Source: Candidatus Cloacimonadales bacterium
GTDB lineage: Bacteria > Cloacimonadota > Cloacimonadia > Cloacimonadales > DAONDQ01
Reading direction: 5' to 3'
Assembly: GCA_963662275.1 (NCBI GenBank)
Contig: OY759316.1
Span: 3,264,001 to 3,328,000 of the forward strand
Length of the DNA: 64,000 nucleotides
Below are positions 45,909 through 59,344 of the stretch, in pieces. A model generated the notes under the pieces. It did no database searches and had not been told where the DNA came from. It saw only the letters and a program-made list of their open reading frames with translations. Position 1 is the first letter of the stretch; each line of letters starts with the position of its first letter. The position numbers were made by a program, and so were the translations under genes.

Positions 45909-45935
45909 AAAAAAGCCCCCTATACAGGGGGCTTT
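45909..45935 (-). terminator. Intrinsic terminator closing the ExbBD/TPR operon
   Basis: Stem AAAGCCCCCT/AGGGGGCTTT with 4-nt loop, then a T run on the minus strand. Confidence 0.75.
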
Positions 45936-45948
45936 AAATCCCTTTTTA

Positions 45949-47430
45949 TCAATTCTTGATAAATTGATAACTGAAGATATAAGTAACTTGTTTATTAACC
46001 GGTATCTTCCACTTCATAATGACTGCTTGCGCCTTTTGCAGGAAAGAATCCGTAAAATAACTACCTGCTTTCGGTTTTATTTCAACACCGGCAATTGCAC
46101 CACCTTCATTGATATATATAGTGAATTCAAGAGCACCATACATATCACGAATCTGTGATTCTGTAATAAAAAGATTCTGAAGTTGCGGTTTGTAAGTAGA
46201 AACATAATTGCGTACATTGCCTAACTCAGCTTTAACAGCCGGTGAACTTGAGGCAATTTCTGTTTCCTTCACTGCTACAATACCAGCAGAAACGAATCGA
46301 CTGCGAACCGCACCAATCTGAGAACTTGAAACGATTCTCTGGGCTTGTATCTTTCCAGTCTTTCCACCAAGAGCAGATGCATCGATTTCTTTATAACCAC
46401 GCGCTCCGGCAACATTAATATTTCCTTTGAAGAGTTCTCCAACATTCTGTGCACTTCTGCTACCTGTGGGAGCTACATTGAAGGCAGAGGCTGCACGGCT
46501 TCCACCACCGGCAGTTCCTGGACCAGGACCAACGCCACCTTTTCCTTTTCCACCACCACCGCCACCGCCTAGACCTTGGGCAACAAGATCACGTTCTGTT
46601 GTGACAGCAATAACTCTGGCAGAGCGGGTTTCACCAGAAGATTGTGTGGCACCCGGATTAAAACCAAACTTGCTTTCAATAGCACCAGAATTGACGTCAG
46701 TACTTTTTGTTTGCTTACCCTGGGAAGCAGCATCCTTTTTTGCATTCGCAGCAGCTTCAGCGGCAGCTTTTGCAGCGGCTTCAGCAGCAGCTCCAGCATT
46801 CTCAGCTTCCGTACTCTTTTCTACCGTCTTCTGGACTTCTGCTGTAACATATTGTGCCATTTTCTGGGAAGCTTCTAAACGATTTTGCAGAGTGTTTTCA
46901 ATGACCTGGGGTTTGTAAAACATATTAAACAACAACATGCCAGCAACTGTAAAGATCACACCGGCAACTAAAAGGTTCCTGGAGAATCTTGCTTCTGCTG
47001 TCGTTTCAGTTTTATGAGAAAGCTGACTGATCACCTGCCTTTGTTCAGCAGTAAATTCTATTTTGTATGGTACTTGAAATTCATAGGCGATTTCCCAATT
47101 CTGTGAAAAGCTGATAGAACCTGTTGTATCTGGTGCTAATGTCAATTGACTTCCACTGATTAATTGAGCCTGCTTCAGTTTGCTGGAATCAAGGACTTGA
47201 TCACCTTTACGAACACTAACTTCCATACCTTGATGAAGATTTAGAACAAATTTATCATTTTCACATTGTACTAAAAGGAATTTATCTGGGAAATTTGGAT
47301 CTAGAATCTGCCAAAACAAGTTTTTATTACTTCCGATATAGAAGCTTTTCAAGAAGTCTCGTTTATATTTTGCAATATCGAGGTTCTTTCCCTTATAATT
47401 CAATTTGATGTTTAGAACTTTTTCTGCCAT
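45949..47430 (-). CDS. GltG/AgmX(PglI)-like energy transducer: cytoplasmic N-domain, single TM, Ala/Gly-rich linker, TonB-C-like domain
   Basis: TM near aa 150-170; AAAEAAAKAAAEAAA; GGGGGGGKGKGG; C-terminal G.LEFTIYINEGG.I..VEI...IMKWKIP. Confidence 0.65.
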   Translation of the reverse strand: MAEKVLNIKLNYKGKNLDIAKYKRDFLKSFYIGSNKNLFWQILDPNFPDKFLLVQCENDKFVLNLHQGMEVSVRKGDQVLDSSKLKQAQLISGSQLTLAPDTTGSISFSQNWEIAYEFQVPYKIEFTAEQRQVISQLSHKTETTAEARFSRNLLVAGVIFTVAGMLLFNMFYKPQVIENTLQNRLEASQKMAQYVTAEVQKTVEKSTEAENAGAAAEAAAKAAAEAAANAKKDAASQGKQTKSTDVNSGAIESKFGFNPGATQSSGETRSARVIAVTTERDLVAQGLGGGGGGGKGKGGVGPGPGTAGGGSRAASAFNVAPTGSRSAQNVGELFKGNINVAGARGYKEIDASALGGKTGKIQAQRIVSSSQIGAVRSRFVSAGIVAVKETEIASSSPAVKAELGNVRNYVSTYKPQLQNLFITESQIRDMYGALEFTIYINEGGAIAGVEIKPKAGSYFTDSFLQKAQAVIMKWKIPVNKQVTYIFSYQFIKN

Positions 47431-47438
47431 AGAACCCC

Positions 47439-47978
47439 CTACAGTTTCAAGACTTTGTCTTTGATGTCGCCTTTTAGAGTGGAGAAATAGATACTAGTAA
47501 AACGCGAGGCGACACTGACGTTAACGATTTCTGTAATATAGTTACACAGAACTGTATCATCTGCCTGTATCATTAATACAGGCACTGCTTTGGGATTATT
47601 AGCCATGATTTTTGATGCTTGATCAGTCAGGAATGACAATATATTCTGACGAGTCTTTTCATTGGTTATAAGATCTTCCAGACTCCCTACATTAATGTTA
47701 TCAGAACCAAGAAGAATTTTATCAGGATATACTTTCAAAATCACTGTATCAGCATCTTTCTGTAAATCTTCAACGTTCATAGTCGTAGGAAATTTCATAT
47801 TGGGAGGAACGGAAACCCTTTGAACTTCCATTGATACATTTTTTATTAGAAAGACCAGGAGAATAGTCAAAACATCCGTCAATGATGTGATATTCAATTT
47901 GGGTGCTTTTGCGACCTTTCTCCGGACTTTGCGGTTTGTATCATGTCTGTTAATTCGTTTTTTTGCAGTATAACTCAT
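47439..47978 (-). CDS. ExbD/TolR-family protein with conserved TM Asp
   Basis: LNITSLTDVLTILLVFLIK; IQAD. Confidence 0.85.
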   Translation of the reverse strand: MSYTAKKRINRHDTNRKVRRKVAKAPKLNITSLTDVLTILLVFLIKNVSMEVQRVSVPPNMKFPTTMNVEDLQKDADTVILKVYPDKILLGSDNINVGSLEDLITNEKTRQNILSFLTDQASKIMANNPKAVPVLMIQADDTVLCNYITEIVNVSVASRFTSIYFSTLKGDIKDKVLKL

Positions 47979-47987
47979 GACATCATC

Positions 47988-48500
47988 CTAGTTGGTTGCT
48001 TCGTAAAATCTTGTTTCAGGAGTTGAATATGTAACATTCGGAAATCCATCGATTTTACACACATCAATAGACCTGACTAATGTTTCATATGTTACGTCGG
48101 GGTATGGAACAACCTTGATATTAAATAAATTAGGATTCCTGTTCTTCAAACTTGTGATAGCTTCGTCCAATGCGATGAAATCATATTTCTTTTGTCCATT
48201 AACAACAGATGTCGGTATGGTAATTGAACCACTACCCTCTTCCTCAATGACAAACCTGTTGTTGTAGAGAACTACTTTTACCACTTTTATTTTCTCACCG
48301 CTTGATCCGGCACCTGTACCACCGCCACCACCACCTGAATTGCCAGTCAAGTTCAGTGAGATATAAGATAGCTGGACGGTTACAAGCATCGTCAGAAGCA
48401 TTGGAATAAGTACAATGAAAAGATTCATAATAGGGGTCATATCAAGTGGGTCCATCCCAGACATCTTAGTATTTCGACCTTTCGATGGGGAGAATGCCAT
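47988..48500 (-). CDS. ExbD/TolR-family protein with Asn at the TM Asp position
   Basis: LDMTPIMNLFIVLIPMLL; PDVTYETLVRSID..K..GFPNV. Confidence 0.82.
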   Translation of the reverse strand: MAFSPSKGRNTKMSGMDPLDMTPIMNLFIVLIPMLLTMLVTVQLSYISLNLTGNSGGGGGGTGAGSSGEKIKVVKVVLYNNRFVIEEEGSGSITIPTSVVNGQKKYDFIALDEAITSLKNRNPNLFNIKVVPYPDVTYETLVRSIDVCKIDGFPNVTYSTPETRFYEATN

Positions 48501-48503
48501 GAT

Positions 48504-49268
48504 TTAATCCTTAATCGTGTTATTGATTTGGTTGATCATTTTAACACTATATTCATCAATTCCATTGATTACTCTTTCTGCAGTACTTTGCAGATAAATA
48601 CGCAGGAATTGGATTGGTATTGCAACGATTAATCCGAGAGCTGTCGTTCCCATAGCAGTCTTGATACCCATGGTCAACAAACGTGACTGATCAACTGGTG
48701 CAGCCGTAGCTAATGCATTGAAAGAACCAATCAATCCCCAAACCGTTCCCAGAAGACCTAACAGCATAGCTATCTGGGCAAACAAATCGAGCCAGAACAA
48801 ACCTGAATCGATGCCAGGAATTGTTTGAAGAGAAGCTTCATCAAAGGCATTTTGTACAGAATCTCTCAATTCTTGTCCTTTCTTTCCTGCTTTGCGTGTA
48901 TCACGAAATATGGAGAATCCACTCCAGAAAATAAAACCTAAGGTAGTCTTTCTAAAACTGTCGCAAATCTTAATAGCTTCATCAATTTCATCATTTTTAA
49001 CATAGCCTTTCAATTTAAGATAGAGTTTTCCAGCATCTACCTTTTCCAGGACTAATATCCGCCGTACCTTAATAAATCCGAATACGATTGAGAGAGCTAA
49101 CATGCCTAAAATCAAGATTCCAAAGGTAAGACCGCTATCATGTATGACTCCCCAAATTGTAGTGCCGCCAGATGCCTGTTTGGCAGCTTCTTTTGCAGCT
49201 TCCTGGGCAAAGGCAAATCCTGCTGTTGCTAGCAGAGATATCATAAAACCGATTTTTTTAGTATTCAT
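48504..49268 (-). CDS. MotA/TolQ/ExbB-family protein
   Basis: IAMLLGLLGTVWGLIGSF, GIKTAMGTTALGLIVAIP. Confidence 0.92.
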   Translation of the reverse strand: MNTKKIGFMISLLATAGFAFAQEAAKEAAKQASGGTTIWGVIHDSGLTFGILILGMLALSIVFGFIKVRRILVLEKVDAGKLYLKLKGYVKNDEIDEAIKICDSFRKTTLGFIFWSGFSIFRDTRKAGKKGQELRDSVQNAFDEASLQTIPGIDSGLFWLDLFAQIAMLLGLLGTVWGLIGSFNALATAAPVDQSRLLTMGIKTAMGTTALGLIVAIPIQFLRIYLQSTAERVINGIDEYSVKMINQINNTIKD

Positions 49269-49289
49269 AATAACCTATTCCTCCATTGT

Positions 49290-49556
49290 TTATTTATATA
49301 GCATTTTATTGGATTTCACTAATTTCTCAAGTAGGAAGTTTTTAAAATCATCCGATACTTCCGTCTTTTTGCGACCCATATAAGCACTAGTATCTGGTAC
49401 TCTCATGGTTGCACGGACATCTTCTGTTGTTTCTTCCTTGAGTACTTTTACATTGTCTGCTTCAAATTTCTTCTTAACATCGGTTGCTTCCTGGCAGAAA
49501 ATGTATGTCATGGAAAAGCATAAAACCAAACTTAATAAAAAAGTTCTAATTTTCAT
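49290..49556 (-). CDS. Small exported protein (88 aa), GltF/CglF-like
   Basis: Signal peptide MKIRTFLLSLVLCFSMTYIFC; start overlaps the upstream TPR gene; V.A..R.P....M.RKKT core. Confidence 0.6.
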   Translation of the reverse strand: MKIRTFLLSLVLCFSMTYIFCQEATDVKKKFEADNVKVLKEETTEDVRATMRVPDTSAYMGRKKTEVSDDFKNFLLEKLVKSNKMLYK

Positions 49557-52500
49557 TATTCCCCGCCTTGTCTTCTTGTACCACCTCTTGGTTTGTTTCA
49601 GGTAGAGCACTGGTAGCTTGCTTTTCATAATAGATCTGCAGATTCTCAGCAAAATACTGATCCACATCTGATTCGTTCATTACTTTGATTTCAATCTTAT
49701 TAATCCCTTCAATCAGATTCTGATTATCTATCCTAATTAAAGAATGTGATATCTGAATTCCATTTACCAGAACTGTATCAATGACCTGAGGCTCACTATC
49801 TAAAGGCTGCATATTGATATTCACAAGTATAGCACTGCTTGAAGCTATATGCATATAAGCAATACTTGGAAGTGTCGCAGATTTAATATCCCTGGATATC
49901 GTGATTGACTGATGAGGGAAAATCTTGATGCAACCAAGAGTAAATTTACTGGTTGTAGTAATATTCGGTAAGATCTGAGACTTTGAAATTGGAAACGAAT
50001 CTGGACCAACTTCTGTGGTCATACGCCATGTATCGTCAAGTATATTTTCCACAATCTCATAAGATGGAAGCCGATTCAATTCTACTAACATACTTGTAGC
50101 TGCACCGATGTTAGAATCAGTATAACCCGTACTCTCTGAGAAAGTCCTAATCAGATATGTTAAGTAAAAAACTTCCGCATCTTGTAAACCTAAAACATTA
50201 TCAGATTTCGTAGTTCTAATCATCTGGACAACTGTATCATATGTTTCAGGAGTTCCTTTAAGCTCTAATATTTCACGAGCAGTTAAGATATACTTTTCAA
50301 GTTGAGTATCCATCACCTGGGCAGCATGCTCATATATCTTACCAATTAACAGAATTGCTTTTGTCCGTCTTTGGCTATCAAGATCATAGTCATTTGCTGT
50401 CCGAAGTAACTTTTCAACCTCACTTCTATTTCTATTGGCTTCATCAATAAGACCTTGAATTCTCTTATCGCCTCCGTTTAACTTCTGTTTCCATGTCGTC
50501 TTATCATTCACAACAAGTAAGGTTGATGGAGACATTTTAAGGAAACCATTTTCAAGACTTGCCAACTTGTCATCATACGTTTTCAGGAATTTCATATTTG
50601 CCATTTCCGCATCATAAACAGTTCTGTATGCAGAAAAATCTTCATAGACACTGGACAATGGTAGCTTTAATCCTTCTTTCTGATAACTAGTATCGAGTTG
50701 TTTAAACTCGTCTATTCTAAGGAAAGTAGTCGTCCAATCCTTTCTTCCAAAAGCAGCTACGGCTTCATCATATATCTTTCCTAACTCACCTTTAGCAAGA
50801 TCAGGCAGAAGTGTAGAGTTTGGATCTTTCTGATAAATTTCAAGAGCCATCTTATGATATTCAGCTTCGTTCCCTTTTTCTTTATACTTAGCAGCAGAAT
50901 ATTCCAATAAACCTAACGCTTTAGGATGGTTTGGGTATAATCTAGCAAAATTCCTACTAAGTTCAGCCACTTTTTGATCATATCCATTTTGTCGATATTG
51001 TTCAAGCGCTAACAAGTAGATATCTTCCTTGGGGTCGCTGCCAATATTGATTCTGCCTGCGACTGCATCATTATACAGATCCAAGTACATATTAGCGGCA
51101 CGATCTTTTGTTTCTGCACTTTTAGCAACTTCAGTGATCAATGTTAAACGTGTCTGATAGGCTTCAACAGATTTGGGATATTTGGTAACAAAGTTATTTT
51201 TCAACTGTTCTGACTGTACTTTATCCGTTAATAGACTATCTGCAATCGTCCATGCATTCACATAAAGGATATAGATATCATTTACGTTATCCTTATATTT
51301 GGCAACATCCAATAGCAGATCAATACTTTTCTGATACATACCGGCTTTGTTGTATAAATCTTGTGCTACTATTTTATAACCAATCACTCTAGTTTGATCA
51401 GTTTTATCAAACTCACTTGCAAGTTTCAGATATTCTTCAGCAGCCTTGGAATATTCATTCTTAGATTTGAGTAAATCAGCCTGGTTATTCATTTGAACAA
51501 GGTAATTGTCATGAATTGCCTGTTTGTCTTGGGCATTCAAAGCATACGACTCTGCTTCTTTATAGTAACTTGTTGCTTGATCAAAATTGCTTGCTTTTTC
51601 GCTGAGCTGTGCAAGTTCAGTATAAATTCCTCTTTTCTGACTAACAGGAAGATTATATTTCAAAATAGCAAGAAGATCTTGCGTCGCTCCATTATAATCA
51701 CCAACTTTTTGTCGAATTTGGCTTCTTCCATAGATAACATGAATTATTTCATCATCCTTATTAGTATCTGTATTCTTATCAGAAAGAAGAATGGCAAGAT
51801 ATCTTTCAACTCCCTGAAGATACAGTGTATCAACAGCAGCAGATGAAATAGTAAAAGTATACGTCGTATCAGAGTATGTACCATTTGTATATTTATCCTT
51901 CAATAATTCCTGAAGTTTCTCAATACAAATGAACGCTCTTCTTTCATTCTGAAAATAATTTGTATTCTCTGGGTTGTCCTGGTTAGATTGGTAAATTCTC
52001 TGATTCAACTCTAAGTATAATTTAGGATTGTTCTGATGTTCTGCTAAATCGTAATTCGCCAGGATAACCTTTTGAGCTTTATCTGTAATCCATCCTTGAT
52101 TGGTTGAATCCACCAGCTCTGGAGTGTTTTGAAAACGAGCTATCAAACCAGCATACTTTTGGAAAGCGAGTAATGACTTATTATTAAAGTACTCATTCCA
52201 GTAATAGGGTTCAAGGAAGAAATAGGACTCGCAAACTATTTTCATAGGTACTTTCAAATCATTAGATTTATTGGCGTTATACCAGGATGAACCAACGCTA
52301 TACGTGCTAATAATCTTCTCTTTTTCAGCTAAAATCACATCTTTCAAGTTCATGTTCGGGCGTAAACCATTCGCATTTGTCGAATAAATCACAATGATTG
52401 AATCTTCCAAAGAAGGGTTTTCCAATTCATTCGGGTAAAGAGTCATATAGGCGTTATAGAAATCAATCGCCTGCATAGGTGCATTCAGGCTTTTTTTAAT

Positions 52501-53406
52501 CTGAACTGCTTTTAGAAGTATCTTCTTCCCATATGAAACGCTTACTGTATTAGGAAGATGATTAATGGCATAAAGCGCTCCCTCTGAATTGGACACATAA
52601 TCATTTTTATCCAAGTTAACTAAGCTATATGCGACATTTTCAATTGATGAATCTTCATAATAAACTTGGAGTTTAAGACTTGGATTAGCCATCAGGGATA
52701 AGATACTACAAAAATCACTGAAAGATTTCTCATATAAACCGGAAGATAAGTTAGCCCAACCTCTTTGGAAAAGACCTATATACTGAAGATCATCATTTGA
52801 ACGGTTCGCCAGGATATTAAACAAATCAGATGCTTTTTGGTAATATTCAACAGGGCGTTCCGCGTCTAAACCTATCTGATAATAGTCAACAGCTAAACGA
52901 AAAATTGCTTCTGATCTATAGGTGGAAGTTGGGAAATCTCTAATTAATTCACCATATGCGTCGATCGCCGGTTGCATATCCTTTATCGTTACCTTTAAAG
53001 AATCCACATTATTGGTGATCTCCTCAGCGTTACGATTTACGGCGCGGATACGTTTATCATTGACTTTATTCATGGCTGACTGGGAAACATAGAATCCAAT
53101 ATTGTACAATATTCTGTCTTTTTCTCTGAAATTCGGATCATTGATTAATACTTGCTGATAATAATAGAGCGTAATCTCTGGATGCTGTAGATTGATAGCT
53201 CCACTGAGTTCAGCTAAATTAGAATAGAGGGAAGCATTGTTAGGTAAATTTGGATTTTCTTGTATAAAATTCAGAGTTTGTTGAAAAACTTGTCTTTTTA
53301 ATACAAGATTCTTTTCCAATTGTATTTGTAATTGTTCGTCAGTTACAGCAACAGCCATTGAAACGATAAGTAACAAAACTGTAAATATGAAAATACCCTT
53401 ATTCAT
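49546..53406 (-). CDS. Large exported TPR protein (1286 aa), GltD-like position
   Basis: Signal peptide; TPR motifs such as ILYNIGF, AYGELIRDFPTS..SEAIFRLA.YY, FARLYPNHP. Confidence 0.75.
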   Translation of the reverse strand: MNKGIFIFTVLLLIVSMAVAVTDEQLQIQLEKNLVLKRQVFQQTLNFIQENPNLPNNASLYSNLAELSGAINLQHPEITLYYYQQVLINDPNFREKDRILYNIGFYVSQSAMNKVNDKRIRAVNRNAEEITNNVDSLKVTIKDMQPAIDAYGELIRDFPTSTYRSEAIFRLAVDYYQIGLDAERPVEYYQKASDLFNILANRSNDDLQYIGLFQRGWANLSSGLYEKSFSDFCSILSLMANPSLKLQVYYEDSSIENVAYSLVNLDKNDYVSNSEGALYAINHLPNTVSVSYGKKILLKAVQIKKSLNAPMQAIDFYNAYMTLYPNELENPSLEDSIIVIYSTNANGLRPNMNLKDVILAEKEKIISTYSVGSSWYNANKSNDLKVPMKIVCESYFFLEPYYWNEYFNNKSLLAFQKYAGLIARFQNTPELVDSTNQGWITDKAQKVILANYDLAEHQNNPKLYLELNQRIYQSNQDNPENTNYFQNERRAFICIEKLQELLKDKYTNGTYSDTTYTFTISSAAVDTLYLQGVERYLAILLSDKNTDTNKDDEIIHVIYGRSQIRQKVGDYNGATQDLLAILKYNLPVSQKRGIYTELAQLSEKASNFDQATSYYKEAESYALNAQDKQAIHDNYLVQMNNQADLLKSKNEYSKAAEEYLKLASEFDKTDQTRVIGYKIVAQDLYNKAGMYQKSIDLLLDVAKYKDNVNDIYILYVNAWTIADSLLTDKVQSEQLKNNFVTKYPKSVEAYQTRLTLITEVAKSAETKDRAANMYLDLYNDAVAGRINIGSDPKEDIYLLALEQYRQNGYDQKVAELSRNFARLYPNHPKALGLLEYSAAKYKEKGNEAEYHKMALEIYQKDPNSTLLPDLAKGELGKIYDEAVAAFGRKDWTTTFLRIDEFKQLDTSYQKEGLKLPLSSVYEDFSAYRTVYDAEMANMKFLKTYDDKLASLENGFLKMSPSTLLVVNDKTTWKQKLNGGDKRIQGLIDEANRNRSEVEKLLRTANDYDLDSQRRTKAILLIGKIYEHAAQVMDTQLEKYILTAREILELKGTPETYDTVVQMIRTTKSDNVLGLQDAEVFYLTYLIRTFSESTGYTDSNIGAATSMLVELNRLPSYEIVENILDDTWRMTTEVGPDSFPISKSQILPNITTTSKFTLGCIKIFPHQSITISRDIKSATLPSIAYMHIASSSAILVNINMQPLDSEPQVIDTVLVNGIQISHSLIRIDNQNLIEGINKIEIKVMNESDVDQYFAENLQIYYEKQATSALPETNQEVVQEDKAGNNEN

Positions 53407-55424
53407 CGACTACCTGTCCCCTGATCCTGTTGATCAGTTCGTTCCGATTCTTTTTGCAGAAGTTTATCATTATTCAAAGTTTTGATGTAGCTTAATTCTA
53501 AGAGAGTATACTCAAATTGTTTATTCATCTCGTTAACCTGTTGATTCAAACTCTCAAATTGTTGACCATAAACCTTGAATATCTCATCAAACTGACCAAT
53601 ACGAGTTTTTGCATCACGAAGAAGCTTACCTGCTAATTTGCGATTAAAGTTTTTCGAAACATCCTCTCTTATCACAATCAAGGAATCTCTGGTATTCATT
53701 ATGTCCTGCAAAGTACTCCGTATCGCTTGTTCCTTTTCAGGATTGGTATTATAATTCCCAAAAAAGTGATTTGCAGCTAATTCCAGATTAGCTATGTCTT
53801 CTGCGAGAGAATTATAGGTTGCATAGGCTTTATCAGCCAATGCTGTGTTTCCAGATTTTTTTGCCTGGTCACCAACCTGTTTCCAATTGAGCAATGCTTT
53901 TCTCTCTTCCCAAATTTCCCTGGAAATGAGTTGCGCATTTTCATATTTTGTAGCGGACACTTCAGGCAAATTGGCTATTAGATTATACGCAAATGCTTTT
54001 ACATAAGTAGAATCAAGATCAGCAATATGCTTATCGATAAGTGCTGTTTCATCAACATTTGGCTTATTAACCAGTTGTTTAATCTTGAGCACTTCCTGAG
54101 TCAGCAAATTTTGATATGTGATGTACTTATCTTCAATATTTTGTATCTTCTTTAATTCAACGGGATTGATACCGTACGACTGATTTGTTAATTGAAGATC
54201 AATATCAGAAATTTGCTGTTCTAAAACACTCATTTCGTTCACTATAGCTAGATTTGTTTCCTTACTATTACTACTGATAAATTGATCTCTTAAGTCTCTT
54301 AATCTATAAATAGCATGGTGTTTTTCATTGATTAACTGAAGAAAGTTATCATTCAGTTTTTCTGAATTATCCACTACGTTCCTTGCTCCTTCTTCATCAC
54401 CTTGTATGCTTTTCATATAGACTATCATATAAACTGAAGAAGTATAGAATTCGGTAGCTTTCGGATCGTTGAGGATCTGGTTTAATAGAGTTTCCGCTTG
54501 TCCAAACTTTCCTGAATTCTTCAAGGCAATTGCCATTTCATATTTGATTTCACTCGCTGAAGTATTGGCATTCACCTGAGAATATTGAGAATAGTATGTC
54601 AATGCCTCATCAAGATTTCCCAATTCGGCATACAATCGTGCTATACATAGCAAAATGAAATCATAATAGGGTGCTTCCGGAGAATAATCATCTTTGATTT
54701 TCATGAATTGTTCAAGGGCAGCATCAGGTGAGACCGAACTGACTACAATCAAAGCAAGCATCGCTTTTGATCTAAGTCCTAAAGTTTTATCACCCGTTAT
54801 TGACATAAAACTTTCATAAGAATTGTCATATTGCCCCAGATTATAATACGCTTGCCCCAATGCATAAATTTGTTCATTCGTCTTAGCAGTCGTTATCGTT
54901 GAATCCAGAGCTATCAGTTTGATATCCTGATTTGTCGCTATATAGATTTTTTCTAGAAGTGATATGCCAGCATTGTATTTGATAGAATTGGGATAATACT
55001 TAATGAAGTCTTCCAAGGCAACTTGCGCTGATTCATAATACTTATTATTAAAATCTATGAGAGCCTTGTCATAAAGAATCCGATCCTGAACAGAAGGAAT
55101 ATCTTTATAAATCATTTTCATTTCAACCAATTTATCAGAAGCAGCTTCCAAACTCTGATTTTTCATAATATCAATCAGTTGTTTTTCTTCTACCTCAAAA
55201 CTTTGCATAAGAGCCGACATATTTCCGGCGTTATACTGCTTCTGCACTTCTAATCTCTTAGTTGCCACAGAGGCTAATCTATCTATTTGGGCTCGGAGTT
55301 CATTGTACTTATTCAGTTCTGAAGTAACGATAGAACGTAAAGAATCTTCAGAAACATTCTGCGCAATCAGAATATTTCCAAAAACAAAGAACATTACGAG
55401 TAACAAGAAAGATTTAGCTTTCAT
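53403..55424 (-). CDS. Exported TPR/coiled-coil protein (673 aa), GltC-like position
   Basis: Signal peptide; FIKYYPNS, YALGQAYYNLGQYD, ARLYAELGNLDEA; helical C-half. Confidence 0.75.
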   Translation of the reverse strand: MKAKSFLLLVMFFVFGNILIAQNVSEDSLRSIVTSELNKYNELRAQIDRLASVATKRLEVQKQYNAGNMSALMQSFEVEEKQLIDIMKNQSLEAASDKLVEMKMIYKDIPSVQDRILYDKALIDFNNKYYESAQVALEDFIKYYPNSIKYNAGISLLEKIYIATNQDIKLIALDSTITTAKTNEQIYALGQAYYNLGQYDNSYESFMSITGDKTLGLRSKAMLALIVVSSVSPDAALEQFMKIKDDYSPEAPYYDFILLCIARLYAELGNLDEALTYYSQYSQVNANTSASEIKYEMAIALKNSGKFGQAETLLNQILNDPKATEFYTSSVYMIVYMKSIQGDEEGARNVVDNSEKLNDNFLQLINEKHHAIYRLRDLRDQFISSNSKETNLAIVNEMSVLEQQISDIDLQLTNQSYGINPVELKKIQNIEDKYITYQNLLTQEVLKIKQLVNKPNVDETALIDKHIADLDSTYVKAFAYNLIANLPEVSATKYENAQLISREIWEERKALLNWKQVGDQAKKSGNTALADKAYATYNSLAEDIANLELAANHFFGNYNTNPEKEQAIRSTLQDIMNTRDSLIVIREDVSKNFNRKLAGKLLRDAKTRIGQFDEIFKVYGQQFESLNQQVNEMNKQFEYTLLELSYIKTLNNDKLLQKESERTDQQDQGTGSR

Positions 55425-55436
55425 ATTATCCTGCTT

Positions 55437-56411
55437 TTATTGTTGGTCTTGGAGTATTTTTTTAATTTCTCCTAATTCCTTCTCTGCCTGTTCTCTCTTT
55501 TCACGAATCAACCTCAATTCATCCAGTAATTCATTCCCTTGTTTAATTTCTTCAGGTTTAGTTACTGTTCTGCGTCCGGCGAATTCCTGCTGACCACCTT
55601 CAAGTCCAAAAAGTACATTAGGTCTCTTGGTCGTAACATATTTATCAAAAGTATAGCCTACATTCATACCAAAACGCAAACTCTGAAACTGTTCAAGCTC
55701 CATCATTGTAAGTTGCCCGCTAAAATTCTTATAGGTAATTTTACCTGCAGCATTTAGATTGAAACCATCCATCTCCGCAATGACAGACCACATCGGTGTT
55801 GGTTTTACTTCCAAGCCGACAAACACCCCATCAATCTTATGCGAGAGCTCGTTTTGACCTCTAAAACGATTTGTTCCAGCACCTATGGTAATTATGGTCT
55901 CCAAATAATTGATAAAACCTAAACCACGAACGACACTTGACTTGGTAATTGCAGCATATAGGGAATTTCTTTCGTACATACAAGGTTCTACGATATTTTC
56001 CCATCTGGCAGCATTTGGTGCTTCCTTAGGTACTTTGGAGAACAGATTATCTGCTCCGATCGTGATCGCAGGTAATCTAACTGTTTCTTCTAATATTTTT
56101 AATTTAGCATTACCACAATAAACACCGTGTTCGGCTGCCACAAAGCCTAATTCTCCACGATTCATGATACCGACATTAATCATTCCATCCCAAGTATATT
56201 GGTATTTATGACTTTGAAGATAAGTAATATTGTTGTAGTTCGGACTATGCCAATCATTTGCAGAAAAATAATTAACATATGACACAGTCACCATATTACC
56301 TGGCATAACATATGCATTGGGAACTCTAATATTCCCCAAGTTTCCGATCGGAATCGCTTGAAGAATGCAGAGTACAGACACAAGGATAGAAAAGACCACG
56401 TATTTTTTCAT
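55437..56411 (-). CDS. YjbH-domain-like outer-membrane beta-strand protein with C-terminal coiled coil
   Basis: Signal peptide; GNIRVPNAYV, KLKILEET.RLPAITIG..NL, amphipathic strands, helical tail. Confidence 0.65.
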   Translation of the reverse strand: MKKYVVFSILVSVLCILQAIPIGNLGNIRVPNAYVMPGNMVTVSYVNYFSANDWHSPNYNNITYLQSHKYQYTWDGMINVGIMNRGELGFVAAEHGVYCGNAKLKILEETVRLPAITIGADNLFSKVPKEAPNAARWENIVEPCMYERNSLYAAITKSSVVRGLGFINYLETIITIGAGTNRFRGQNELSHKIDGVFVGLEVKPTPMWSVIAEMDGFNLNAAGKITYKNFSGQLTMMELEQFQSLRFGMNVGYTFDKYVTTKRPNVLFGLEGGQQEFAGRRTVTKPEEIKQGNELLDELRLIREKREQAEKELGEIKKILQDQQ

Positions 56412-56463: not shown

Positions 56464-56492
56464 TTTATAATGTATTGACATGTATTAGTCAA
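56464..56492 (-). promoter_or_regulatory. Sigma70-type promoter for the YjbH-TPR-ExbBD operon
   Basis: TTGACT-N17-TATAAA on the minus strand; overlaps a divergent TTGACA at 56475-56480. Confidence 0.6.
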
Positions 56493-56508: not shown

Positions 56509-56892
56509 ATGAAAAATGAAAACCCTTTAGCCTTGGCAAAAAATGGTGAAGATTTAGCTGCATCCATACTCTCCCAAAAGGGTTATACTATACTACAGAT
56601 GAATTTTCACAGTCGTTTTGGCGAAATTGATATTATCGCCAAATCACCTTCGCACATCATTTTTACTGAAGTAAAAACTCGTTCTTTTTTAAACAGAGAC
56701 CTTGCTTTAGAAGCTGTCTCATTAAAAAAACAAAAACGCATTCTCAAGACAGCTTTGCATTTTCTTCAGCAGCATCAGGAATACAATGAATTCATGATCC
56801 GCTTTGACATTATACTCGTCTTTTATCACCACGCAACAGAAAACTTCAGCATTGAACATATTGAAGATGCTTTTTCATTCAGTGGGGTATGA
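56509..56892 (+). CDS. yraN: YraN-family (UPF0102) protein
   Basis: GEDLA, GEIDIIA, FTEVKTR, RFDI, HIEDAF. Confidence 0.9.
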   Translation: MKNENPLALAKNGEDLAASILSQKGYTILQMNFHSRFGEIDIIAKSPSHIIFTEVKTRSFLNRDLALEAVSLKKQKRILKTALHFLQQHQEYNEFMIRFDIILVFYHHATENFSIEHIEDAFSFSGV

Positions 56893-58230
56893 AGAATCCT
56901 TCTCCAAATCCTCTTCTTGAAAATTTTTCCCTAAATAGCGCTGCCAATCAGCTTGTGAATTCTCTTTTTCATCATTTTTAGCATAGATCATTTTATAATT
57001 ACCATTCATTTGTATATCAATAAAAACATAGCTTCTGCCACTTTTTGTGTACTTCCAAATCTGATAATCCTTTTGTACAAACTTTGTATCATCGGAAGTT
57101 ACCCGTTTACTGATATCATCAGGCACACCCATTCGGATATAAATCCTACCCATGTCAGATTCCCAACCCGGTTTGAAATGTGAGTAAAATTTATTTGCAT
57201 AACTGATTCGATTCTTAATCAATGTCGTCCATTGCAGGACAGGCTGATTTTCTTCCGCTGCAAGAGAAATCCATAATTGAGTTGTCATGCGTTTTTTCCC
57301 ATCATTCGAAAGTACATCCAGGGAGGATAGTTTCGATTTTGGATAAAAATACTTCAGTAATGAAATCTCCTCTGCTATCTTCGGTAAGATACTGATAAAA
57401 TCTTCTTTTATTTCTCCCAGGGAGAAGAAAGTAGTAACGGTATCCGGTTTTGATCCTGATTTCCTAATGATCTTTAAATCCAGTAAACCATAAGGAAGAT
57501 CTTTCAAAGAAATACATGTTTGTATATTTGTTAAGGAGGATGTTGATTGGGTACTCGTTTCCCATGAACGAAGAATAGTTTTATCCTTGAGTAACCGATA
57601 TTCCATTTCGAAAGAAATACTGCCACCAGTTCCATTGGTAGGTCCAAACATTTGATAATAGATATACATACTATCCTGTAAGGCTGGATAAAAAACATGG
57701 GAAGGTTCAACCAAATATATTTTGTTATTTCTTCGGAATTTCTCCATATATCTTGTGGTATCTGCAGTGGCAATAGATTTGCTTAATTCAATATCACTGA
57801 GAGACCTATCAACTGGTAATTCGATAAGATCCTTGACCCAGGTTTTCGAATTAGTAGACTTCGGATCTGTAAATGTAATCCTGATTTTGTAACTCTTACC
57901 ACTCAAAACCAGGCTAATCTTATCCATAAAGGATTTTTGTTCTGACTCTGCATCATTCTGACTCGAGACCCCGATTTTATTGGTGAATTCCTTTTGAGTA
58001 ATGACGGAATCACTTTTTAGAATTTCGATTTTTACAGTTAGATCAGCAAAATAACCTTTTTGAAATCCGACAAAACTCAAATTGTTGTATTTGACTTGGT
58101 AGTTAATCTCAAATTTGGTTTGATGTTTCTCATTAAAGAAGCGATTCATATCGATGTTCACAGGTAAATTAGCTGCCCAACACGCGAAAAAGGTAAAAGT
58201 GAATAGTAGTGTTGCTAATATTTTATTCAT
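56875..58230 (-). CDS. GWxTD-domain exported protein
   Basis: Signal peptide; RISYANKFY...GWESDMGRIYIRMGVPD; YVFID. Confidence 0.85.
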   Translation of the reverse strand: MNKILATLLFTFTFFACWAANLPVNIDMNRFFNEKHQTKFEINYQVKYNNLSFVGFQKGYFADLTVKIEILKSDSVITQKEFTNKIGVSSQNDAESEQKSFMDKISLVLSGKSYKIRITFTDPKSTNSKTWVKDLIELPVDRSLSDIELSKSIATADTTRYMEKFRRNNKIYLVEPSHVFYPALQDSMYIYYQMFGPTNGTGGSISFEMEYRLLKDKTILRSWETSTQSTSSLTNIQTCISLKDLPYGLLDLKIIRKSGSKPDTVTTFFSLGEIKEDFISILPKIAEEISLLKYFYPKSKLSSLDVLSNDGKKRMTTQLWISLAAEENQPVLQWTTLIKNRISYANKFYSHFKPGWESDMGRIYIRMGVPDDISKRVTSDDTKFVQKDYQIWKYTKSGRSYVFIDIQMNGNYKMIYAKNDEKENSQADWQRYLGKNFQEEDLEKDSSYPTE

Positions 58231-59344
58231 CGGATACCGATCCTAGTTGGTAATTCCCCCAACTGTTAAAATCATAAAATTGGAAGATTTTGTTTTCAGA
58301 ATAATAGTACCATATAATGTATGGTGGTCTATCCAAGGGATATGGATCAGATACCACTTCATCAGGAGTACCGTATTTAATAAAAATTCTACCTCTGTCA
58401 GATTTCCAACCTGGTCGATAGTTGCGAATCGAATAATTCCGATCCGCCTCTAATACTCGGGCTTCAAAGGTATCTCTGAATTCATTGCGGTTCGTACCAG
58501 GAGTGGGATCCTTCATCTTCCAGAAATCTTCGATTGCCTGTTTATCTTTTTCATGTTTGATTGACCTGAAATATTGTAGTTCATTTTGATTCATAATATA
58601 TTTCAATTGCAGCACCTGATCCTCAATCGAATAGCGTTCGCTGAAACCGCTTGTGGAATTAAACGAAAGTACTTCTTTCGTATATTTCACTTTTTGTGCA
58701 AAGACCTGCAATTTTATTACAGGATGTTCCAAACCGGCAAGAATTGATTTCATATCTACATGGATAACTTGTCCAGCAGAAATATTAATTATTTTAATTT
58801 TATCCTCTTCTGCTATGGAGATCTTGACACTATCCGGTATGATTCCCAGGTTCGTCTGTAAAAGCAATGAATCAACTTTTGAAGACAGATTATCAAGCTC
58901 ATGAACTAAAAAATAGTTATTCCCCATTTTACCAATTAAAAATAAAGTTCCAATTTTTTTCCCATTACTTGGAATTATCAATGGAAATTTCTGCTCATTT
59001 TTATCACCTAGATCAAGGTTATTTACCTGCATGTATAACATATAATTCCCGGGAGGAAGCTTGATATTGCGAAAAATAGGATAGTCTTCTGTATCCATGG
59101 AATCAGGTTTTGTAAATTTTAACGGCTCAAATTCATGGTAAACATTTTTTTTATTCGTATCTAATATATCCACTTTCAATTCATAGTCACAAATTCTGGT
59201 TTGAAGATTAGGATGAAATCCGGAATACGGGAGAAGTAGTAATAGTATTGTAGTATCGCCAACTTTTTCAGATCTTAATTGCTGACCGATGAGAAACGTT
59301 TGGAGACTTATTAGGAGAATAACTAATCCTATGATTTTATACAT
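58223..59344 (-). CDS. GWxTD-domain exported protein
   Basis: FWKMKDPTPGT.RNE, GWKSDRGRIFIKYGTPD, IWYY. Confidence 0.88.
   Translation of the reverse strand: MYKIIGLVILLISLQTFLIGQQLRSEKVGDTTILLLLLPYSGFHPNLQTRICDYELKVDILDTNKKNVYHEFEPLKFTKPDSMDTEDYPIFRNIKLPPGNYMLYMQVNNLDLGDKNEQKFPLIIPSNGKKIGTLFLIGKMGNNYFLVHELDNLSSKVDSLLLQTNLGIIPDSVKISIAEEDKIKIINISAGQVIHVDMKSILAGLEHPVIKLQVFAQKVKYTKEVLSFNSTSGFSERYSIEDQVLQLKYIMNQNELQYFRSIKHEKDKQAIEDFWKMKDPTPGTNRNEFRDTFEARVLEADRNYSIRNYRPGWKSDRGRIFIKYGTPDEVVSDPYPLDRPPYIIWYYYSENKIFQFYDFNSWGNYQLGSVSDE

Follow-up and report, generated by a model that had tools for sequence, protein, structure and literature searches.

The window analysed here is a stretch of 64,000 nucleotides from a Candidatus Cloacimonadales bacterium (contig OY759316.1, positions 3,264,001 to 3,328,000), and it contains an operon of eight genes that probably encodes a divergent, Cloacimonadota-type form of the Agl/Glt “core complex”, that is, a proton-driven machine passing force across the cell envelope. 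A machine of this kind, with an outer-membrane barrel as its partner, had been suggested in an original prediction made from the sequence alone, and that interpretation seems to be largely right, via remote homology only. The host genome consists of one contig of 4.38 Mb and is 99.97% complete. The prediction had also supposed a Cloacimonadota-like host, which is borne out by the close homologues of two of the operon proteins, those of 493 and 324 amino acids (aa), since these homologues are named Candidatus Cloacimonadota.

The coordinates and strand of all eight open reading frames (ORFs) were confirmed, so that the tightly packed, co-oriented row that had been described does exist. All of them lie on the minus strand (window 56411-45949), and their spacing ranges from a 21-nt gap down to an 11-nt overlap. 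In the direction of transcription, the first gene (55437..56411) encodes an exported outer-membrane barrel protein of 324 aa. The second (53403..55424) encodes an exported, GltC-like protein of 673 aa with tetratricopeptide repeats (TPR; Pfam TPR_2, TPR_14 and TPR_6) and coiled coils, and the third (49546..53406) an exported, GltD-like helical/TPR scaffold of 1286 aa, whose C-terminal part is rich in beta structure. The fourth (49290..49556) encodes a small exported protein of 88 aa, the start of which is an internal Met of a 125-aa ORF. Then follow a TolQ/ExbB-type proton-channel subunit of 254 aa in an AglR-like position (48504..49268; Pfam MotA_ExbB, PF01618, 75.6 bits) and two ExbD/TolR-type subunits, a (170 aa; 47988..48500; Pfam ExbD, PF02472, 30.3 bits) and b (179 aa; 47439..47978; PF02472, 36.9 bits). 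The last gene (45949..47430) encodes a GltG-like transducer of 493 aa, recognised by its predicted fold and by profile comparison. The 324-, 1286-, 88- and 493-aa proteins have no significant Pfam or NCBIfam match. Scans of the window with the same two collections found no TonB-dependent receptor, TolB or Pal adjacent to the operon, as had been stated before.

The GltG-like transducer and the TPR scaffold

The 493-aa protein had been described as a protein with a single membrane helix, a cytoplasmic N-terminal domain, an Ala/Gly-rich linker and a TonB-C-like end, and an AlphaFold model built with 18 sequences agrees with this description. In the model, residues 1-121 form a confident all-beta domain with the FHA fold (pLDDT ~88), which would be cytoplasmic, and residues ~145-171 form the membrane helix. 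Behind it, helices and then a disordered Ala/Gly-rich linker extend to residue ~368, and residues 372-490 form a confident alpha/beta domain of the TonB C-terminal type. In two papers, the architecture of GltG/PglI is likewise given as FHA domain, membrane helix, disordered linker and TonB C-terminal domain (PMC3169522 Table 1; PMC11761067). Therefore, the predicted layout of the 493-aa protein is the GltG architecture.

A profile of the 493-aa family was searched against 1.84 billion representative sequences, and just 223 proteins were matched at E<=0.001. Twenty-two of the weaker matches were scanned against NCBIfam. Among them, proteins of ~440-470 aa (for example, P0099, P0146, P0150, P0152, P0157 and P0166) match the model NF033760 (gliding_GltG) over positions ~200-650 of its 650 with 72.8-202.7 bits, which is under the 650-bit equivalog cut-off of that model, and they are over the cut-off of NF033768. 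The comparison of the 493-aa family with ten GltG-like proteins carrying the NF033760 signature gives 99.85% with hhalign (E 1.6e-30) over 416 columns, which span the FHA domain, the helix and the C-terminal domain; this value is partly circular because the comparison set was recruited with the 493-aa profile, and its independent part is the NF033760 match of the compared proteins. The original prediction had leaned on similarity to the AgmX/PglI C-terminal domain as well. This match (NF033768, 19 bits) is unspecific, since other TonB-like genes of the genome score higher and 8 of 14 control genomes also match, and it was rejected as evidence.

A bridge between the operon and the recognised GltG proteins is provided by a metagenome contig, L030 (12 kb, GC 32%). 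Its 469-aa protein scores 84.7 bits with NF033760, and 64.8 bits with NF033768 against a cut-off of 40. The genes on this contig encode, in series, proteins of 1489 and 103 aa, an ExbB-type protein, two ExbD-type proteins and the 469-aa protein with the GltG signature, and this order matches that of the window operon. An ExbB with two ExbD genes stands beside glt-type genes in L030, as it does in L031. After the operon of the former, a PAS-GGDEF diguanylate cyclase gene is found (L030:8752-10056).

Some further proteins share parts of the transducer. In one relative, the 660-aa protein P0075, the helix, the linker and the TonB-type end (E 7.2e-63 with the profile of the family) come after a Ser/Thr kinase domain of the PknB kind, which takes the place of the FHA domain; this hints at a link of the cytoplasmic end to phospho-signalling. 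Short proteins of ~130-200 aa in many Cloacimonadota genomes match only the TonB-type C-terminal domain of the family, with E values of 1e-16 to 1e-24 (for example, G003:C1:1820681-1820986). A group of canonical FHA-domain proteins at G000:C1:128909-134002 contains the sole matches of the GltG model in the host genome.

For the two large exported proteins, the reference was a locus in a deltaproteobacterial metagenome-assembled genome (L029), which was located with an alignment of three GltG-like sequences. In this locus, the genes for a GltC-like protein (NF033756, 85.7 bits), a TPR protein of 1186 aa, a GltE-like protein (NF033758, 91.5 bits), an exported protein of 79 aa and a GltG-like protein (146.7 bits) stand in a row. 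The 1186-aa protein has 41-52% identity to eleven aligned proteins of 1079-1218 aa, and six of the eleven are named from Myxococcaceae, Anaeromyxobacter, Myxococcota or Deltaproteobacteria; the GltD of Myxococcus xanthus has 1191 aa (PMC3169522). The reference families consist of 12 GltD-type sequences (Myxococcaceae, Anaeromyxobacter) and 12 GltC-like ones.

With hhalign, the 1286-aa protein gives 98.9% against the GltD-type family (E 1.6e-17, 717 columns), compared with 12.8% against the GltC-like family (E 0.0022, 86 columns) and 0.83% against the GltE-like protein of the reference locus (E 0.067, 162 columns), both of which served as controls. For the 673-aa protein, the values are 97.1% against the GltC-like family (E 6.5e-11, 224 columns), 87.3% against the GltD-type family (E 3.7e-6, 239 columns) and 0.84% against the GltE-like protein (E 0.066, 112 columns). 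Judged from these scores and the low cross-controls, the assignment of the 1286-aa protein to the GltD type is good, whereas a GltC type is the best available, and partial, assignment for the 673-aa protein. A search of a sequence atlas with the 1286-aa protein returned unnamed TPR clusters only.

In the family of the 88-aa protein, one Pro is invariant and the motif SNKxLY is conserved at the C-terminus. The protein is like GltF, for which 89 aa and a signal peptide are tabulated (PMC3169522 Table 1), in size, signal peptide and gene position, and it had been taken as the small GltF of the machine. However, the comparison of its family with the 79-aa protein in the GltF position of the reference locus gives 0.84% with hhalign, that is, no detectable homology, and the identification as GltF was not sustained.

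The motor subunits and the outer-membrane barrel

The ExbB-type protein scores 71.8 bits with the TolQ model TIGR02796, compared with a cut-off of 221, and 36.3 bits with the ExbB model. Among the sequences in the Protein Data Bank (PDB), TolQ chains (2.4e-8) come ahead of ExbB chains (3.3e-6). Neither ExbD a nor ExbD b has a real match among the sequences of solved structures. One ExbB and two different ExbD had been pointed out as a mark of the Agl motor, and they are present in the operon; nevertheless, the set is not diagnostic, because two further clusters of the same genome, which has five MotA/ExbB-family genes, also consist of one ExbB and two ExbD.

The relationships of the channel subunit were read from a midpoint-rooted tree that contains 19 proteins of the ExbB type. 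A split with support 98/97 places on one side the window clade, which includes the protein of L030, two deltaproteobacterial clusters with one ExbB and two long ExbD, and one cluster of the host. The other side holds the deltaproteobacterial true TolQ (223 bits, adjoining TolR, TolA and TolB), the other clusters of that organism and the ExbB-TonB clusters of the host. Note that the deltaproteobacterium in question is a Glt-bearing one. Consequently, the window protein is set apart from true TolQ and from the ExbB-TonB clusters, with the named AglR, AglQ and AglS lying outside the tree. One of the host clusters with one ExbB and two ExbD, L007 (G000:C1:2038320-2043702), encodes in order a 254-aa protein, ExbB, ExbD, ExbD, and proteins of 319 and 643 aa; its ExbB is on the window's side of the tree, its three flanking proteins match no family, and a comparison of the 319-aa one with the 493-aa family shows no relationship (0.07%). 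At another place in the host genome (L008, G000:C1:254816-256582), a weak MotA_ExbB match is seen in a protein of 588 aa, which lies beside an 866-aa protein ending in a FlgD_ig-type domain and three proteins without family matches.

The two ExbD proteins correspond to different partners. ExbD a matches the first ExbD of a deltaproteobacterial cluster (L039), and ExbD b matches the second ExbD of that cluster and of another one (L040); therefore, the gene order is the same. At the position of the membrane Asp, ExbD a has Asn in 10 of 10 Cloacimonadota-type sequences, whereas its deltaproteobacterial homologues have Asp (2 of 2). All 11 aligned sequences of ExbD b have the membrane Asp (D35). 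A Gly-rich linker follows the membrane helix of ExbD a in the window. In the published AglR5QS model, too, the plug is a heterodimer, and one of its subunits has a long linker (PMC11761067).

Could the operon be an ordinary TonB-ExbBD system, powering TonB-dependent uptake? The MotA_ExbB and ExbD domains and the TonB fold of the C-terminal domain would fit such a system, and Pfam TonB_C weakly matches 10 of 18 members of the transducer family (best E 1.9e-4). However, the 493-aa protein of the window has no TonB_C (PF03544) match at E<=0.01, and it carries an FHA domain and no Pro-rich rod. In addition, no receptor gene adjoins the operon, and the transducer is conserved together with a barrel and two exported TPR proteins of giant size. 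A canonical receptor-ExbB-ExbD-ExbD-TonB cluster is present elsewhere in the genome (TonB_C, 65 bits), and the ExbB proteins of the two clusters are located on opposite sides of the 98/97 split. An uptake system of the usual kind is thus very improbable.

The 324-aa protein is predicted to form a 12-stranded beta-barrel (residues ~41-255) followed by a long periplasmic helix at the C-terminus (residues 286-323). It had been called YjbH-like. The outer-membrane barrel is retained, whereas the support for the YjbH label is weak: no Pfam model, PF06082 (YjbH/GfcD) included, matches the window protein, and 16 of 28 members of its family match PF06082 at E<=1, with 4.6e-5 as the best value. The comparison of the family with the 431-aa barrel of L029 gives 0.84%.

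Distribution in Cloacimonadota and probable role

The GltG-like protein was found in 115 of 151 genomes of the phylum when a single sequence was used for the search, and in 116 of 151 (107 of 139 high-quality ones) when the family profile was used. In the remaining 35 genomes it was not found by the profile search, and these include all genomes of families f7 (0/6) and f12 (0/6) and all except one of f13 (1/13). Eight loci from other genomes of the phylum, which represent six families and include one locus from another order, were sampled for gene order, and the order of the operon is kept in 8 of 8, which is therefore far from chance; the synteny in relatives that the original prediction implied is thus confirmed. 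In blastp comparisons, the 1286-aa protein, the ExbB-type protein, ExbD a and the 493-aa protein have matches in 8/8 loci, the 324-aa barrel and ExbD b in 7/8, and the 88-aa protein in 6/8. In three of the eight loci (L022, L024 and L025), the 673-aa and 1286-aa proteins both match one single ORF, and the sizes of these ORFs are 1739, 2148 and 2149 aa. A fourth locus (L021), with an ORF of 1953 aa, is counted among the GltC-like/GltD-like fusions. By the Rosetta-stone argument, such fusions are evidence that the GltC-like and GltD-like proteins act jointly.

A comparable gene set has been described outside the myxobacteria. According to Luciano et al. (2011), the core complex comprises the Group B genes gltC, gltD, gltE and gltG with aglR, aglQ and aglS, which form one cluster with one extra gene, and it occurs in Gamma- and Betaproteobacteria, Geobacter and Fibrobacter succinogenes, where its function is not known (PMC3169522). 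Consequently, the operon is non-myxobacterial, as predicted, and this property is not new in itself, having been known since 2011, with one member of the Fibrobacteres included. Cloacimonas is not mentioned in the text of that paper, and our literature searches, judged partly by title and abstract, returned no paper linking Cloacimonas to GltG or bearing on the operon in Cloacimonadota.

The window operon shares with the core complex of 2011 a TolQ-like subunit, two TolR-like subunits, a GltG-type protein with FHA and TonB-like domains and large exported TPR proteins of the GltD and, probably, the GltC type. It also has an extra gene that is absent from Myxococcales, a likeness by presence, not identity, and in both cases the hosts are not known to glide and the function is unknown. 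On the other hand, the operon is so divergent that the curated Myxococcus models miss it, it is without a GltE-type protein, and it brings a 12-stranded barrel of its own, which carries a periplasmic helix. In some relatives, the GltC-like gene is fused to the GltD-like one. The TolR-type subunit a has Asn for the membrane Asp in all ten sequences, and the operon is spread through most of one phylum rather than sporadically. Compared with the AlphaFold model of the Agl-Glt machine of M. xanthus (PMC11761067), the operon has the same predicted logic of a pentameric channel and a heterodimeric plug with one long-linker subunit. In both, an FHA domain is next to the membrane helix of the transducer and a disordered segment is long enough to span the wall. 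In M. xanthus, the TonB-type end is placed on the GltD scaffold and GltC lies under outer-membrane barrels, and the contacts in the window machine would be similar by analogy. Both systems have a small exported protein (88-89 aa); its gene is directly 3' of the GltD-type gene in the window, whereas gltF of M. xanthus comes after gltE and before gltG. Furthermore, the GltG of M. xanthus has two FHA domains and 640 aa, whereas the window transducer has one FHA domain and 493 aa, and CglB was not found in the host genome (E<=10).

We propose the following mechanism, which is modelled on TolQR-TolA and on AglR5QS-GltG. Five copies of the TolQ-like protein would form a channel in the inner membrane. 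The two TolR-type subunits, which differ from each other, would plug it as a heterodimer, and subunit b alone would keep the proton-carrying Asp. Proton flow would then be converted into conformational work on the 493-aa transducer, whose membrane helix and neighbouring degenerate FHA domain would dock on the channel and whose long disordered linker would span the peptidoglycan. The TonB-type end may engage a periplasmic scaffold of the GltD-like and GltC-like proteins, which would be one fused protein in some relatives, and the 88-aa protein may aid this contact. The 12-stranded barrel, together with its helix on the periplasmic side, would keep the scaffold beneath the outer membrane. We think that the machine most likely acts at the outer membrane, where it would move, tether or assemble some structure, in envelope upkeep or in a surface layer, rather than propelling the cell.

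Several points weigh against the core-complex assignment. Every link to the Glt proteins is remote: the curated models NF033760 (GltG) and NF033756 (GltC), run on the whole genome, do not match the operon genes, and the 493-aa protein reaches 19 bits with NF033768, compared with a cut-off of 40. To the circular part of the GltG comparison should be added that the GltC-like match of the 673-aa protein covers 224 of 676 columns, with the same TPR region matching GltD at 87.3%, and that the reference family was called GltD from gene position, length and source taxa, the NCBIfam scans having brought up no curated GltD model. There is no GltE counterpart, as hhalign gives 0.83-0.84% to the GltE-like protein of L029 and NF033758 has no match at E<=0.01, and the 88-aa family shows no homology to the protein in the GltF position. 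The motor tree has long branches and a midpoint root only, and it contains no named AglR, AglQ or AglS, so that its grouping is one by cluster make-up, short of Agl orthology. Finally, the stoichiometry of the motor and all contacts are drawn by analogy. Thus, of the proposed Glt composition, the GltG-, GltD- and GltC-like links survive through profile-profile comparison as probable remote homology, and the barrel survives as the outer-membrane partner, whereas GltE, a detectable GltF homologue and a match of the curated models are missing.

A gliding or spore-coat machine like that of Myxococcus, by which the cell or a polymer on its surface would be propelled along a track, is a further explanation for the operon. 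The GltG-, GltD- and GltC-type homology and the Agl-like make-up of the motor would agree with it. However, the curated GltG and GltC models miss the operon, which also holds nothing GltE-like, and CglB (NF033757) is unmatched in the genome at E<=10, the GltA/B/H/K, GltI and GltJ families not having been searched singly. Therefore, a Myxococcus-type gliding machine is hardly to be expected here.

More deserves to be said for the possibility that the operon is the phylum's functional substitute of Tol-Pal, tethering and constricting the outer membrane for integrity and division, a role compatible with descent from a Glt core. No TolB above the cut-off is found in the genome, where the best score is 63 bits, compared with 343, in propeller proteins of 1000 aa. 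The ExbB-type protein is closer to solved TolQ than to solved ExbB, and the transducer, with its membrane helix, long linker and TonB/TolA-type end, is of the Tol kind. The 673-aa protein has a TPR match of the YbgF/CpoB type with 33 bits, and the protein of L030 that is homologous to the 1286-aa one has such a match with 63 bits. The locus is single-copy, widely kept and adjacent to priA. However, the TolQ model score is far from its cut-off, the two TolR-type subunits are unlike each other, the transducer has a cytoplasmic FHA domain that TolA does not have, and a giant TPR scaffold is added. There is no Pal-type partner in the operon; Pal was not searched genome-wide, nor were Pal and other Tol-like sets searched in the genomes lacking the operon. 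The absence of the GltG-like gene from the 35 genomes, and from whole families, argues against an essential envelope system, where such a loss would be unexpected. We consider this substitution rather unlikely.

A related and similarly tentative idea, to which we give a low probability, is that an old, vertically kept Glt core serves as the main Tol-like machine of Cloacimonadota, in which a single-Asp stator and an FHA-gated transducer pull a fused GltC/GltD scaffold hung from a dedicated barrel, so that the outer membrane, or else a surface layer to which the neighbouring GWxTD proteins would contribute, is held or remodelled. If this were true, it would tell us the primary function of the core complex that later gave rise to gliding.

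The original prediction had further suggested that the machine may energise the export of the many proteins with C-terminal domain (CTD) tags nearby. In such a role, it might drive type IX secretion in place of a missing PorLM/GldLM motor. SprA is indeed found in the genome (282.6 bits; G000:C1:3338092-3343338, ~10 kb past the window end), as are a PorV-like gene and at least 150 Por_Secre_tail matches; the models for GldM (TIGR03517, PF12081) and GldL (TIGR03513) matched nothing there. It should be noted that TIGR03517 and TIGR03513 matched no control genome either, and the absence of GldM and GldL is therefore unproven. The tagged proteins are not a local feature, since their genes are not clustered by the operon and 3 of the 150 matches listed lie in the window. 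Moreover, another ExbB-ExbD-ExbD-TonB cluster adjoins the PorV-like gene. The role in type IX secretion is disfavoured because families f7 and f13 have SprA (6/6 and 13/13, respectively) and are mostly without the GltG-like gene (0/6 and 1/13), and we regard it as scarcely credible. Among the papers listed by a literature search on type IX secretion in Cloacimonadota or Fibrobacterota, none names either phylum.

The favoured assignment, a divergent Agl/Glt core complex, would extend the range of this family to an uncultured anaerobic phylum. The job of the core complex in non-gliding bacteria has been open since 2011, and a compact version that is found throughout a phylum could help to settle it. 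Since its outer-membrane partner is simple, GltC-GltD fusions occur naturally and its stator would keep one proton-carrying Asp, the operon would be a small model for structural and biochemical studies of the way in which motors of the TolQR type transmit force through the wall.

Borders of the operon and neighbouring genes

Both borders that had been proposed for the operon are present. A promoter-like TTGACT (56492-56487), N17 and TATAAA (56469-56464) are located on the minus strand (56464..56492), 52 nt 5' of the first ATG. However, 40 promoter-like sites were observed in the region, compared with 40.5 expected in shuffled sequences, and because such sites are not enriched, this one should be taken as a mere consensus match. 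At the other end, directly 3' of the last gene, a GC-rich hairpin of 10 bp followed by a T-run resembles an intrinsic terminator (45912..45935, minus strand).

The operon is flanked downstream by priA, and upstream by yraN on the opposite strand and by two genes for GWxTD-domain proteins. The latter pair (56875..59344, minus strand) encodes proteins of 451 and 373 aa, which match TIGR04514 with 68 and 99 bits, respectively. A literature search for GWxTD found no paper mentioning it. In the eight loci sampled for synteny, priA lies downstream in 4/8 and the GWxTD pair lies upstream in 5/8; the pair is thus a frequent upstream neighbour, whose membership in the system is uncertain.

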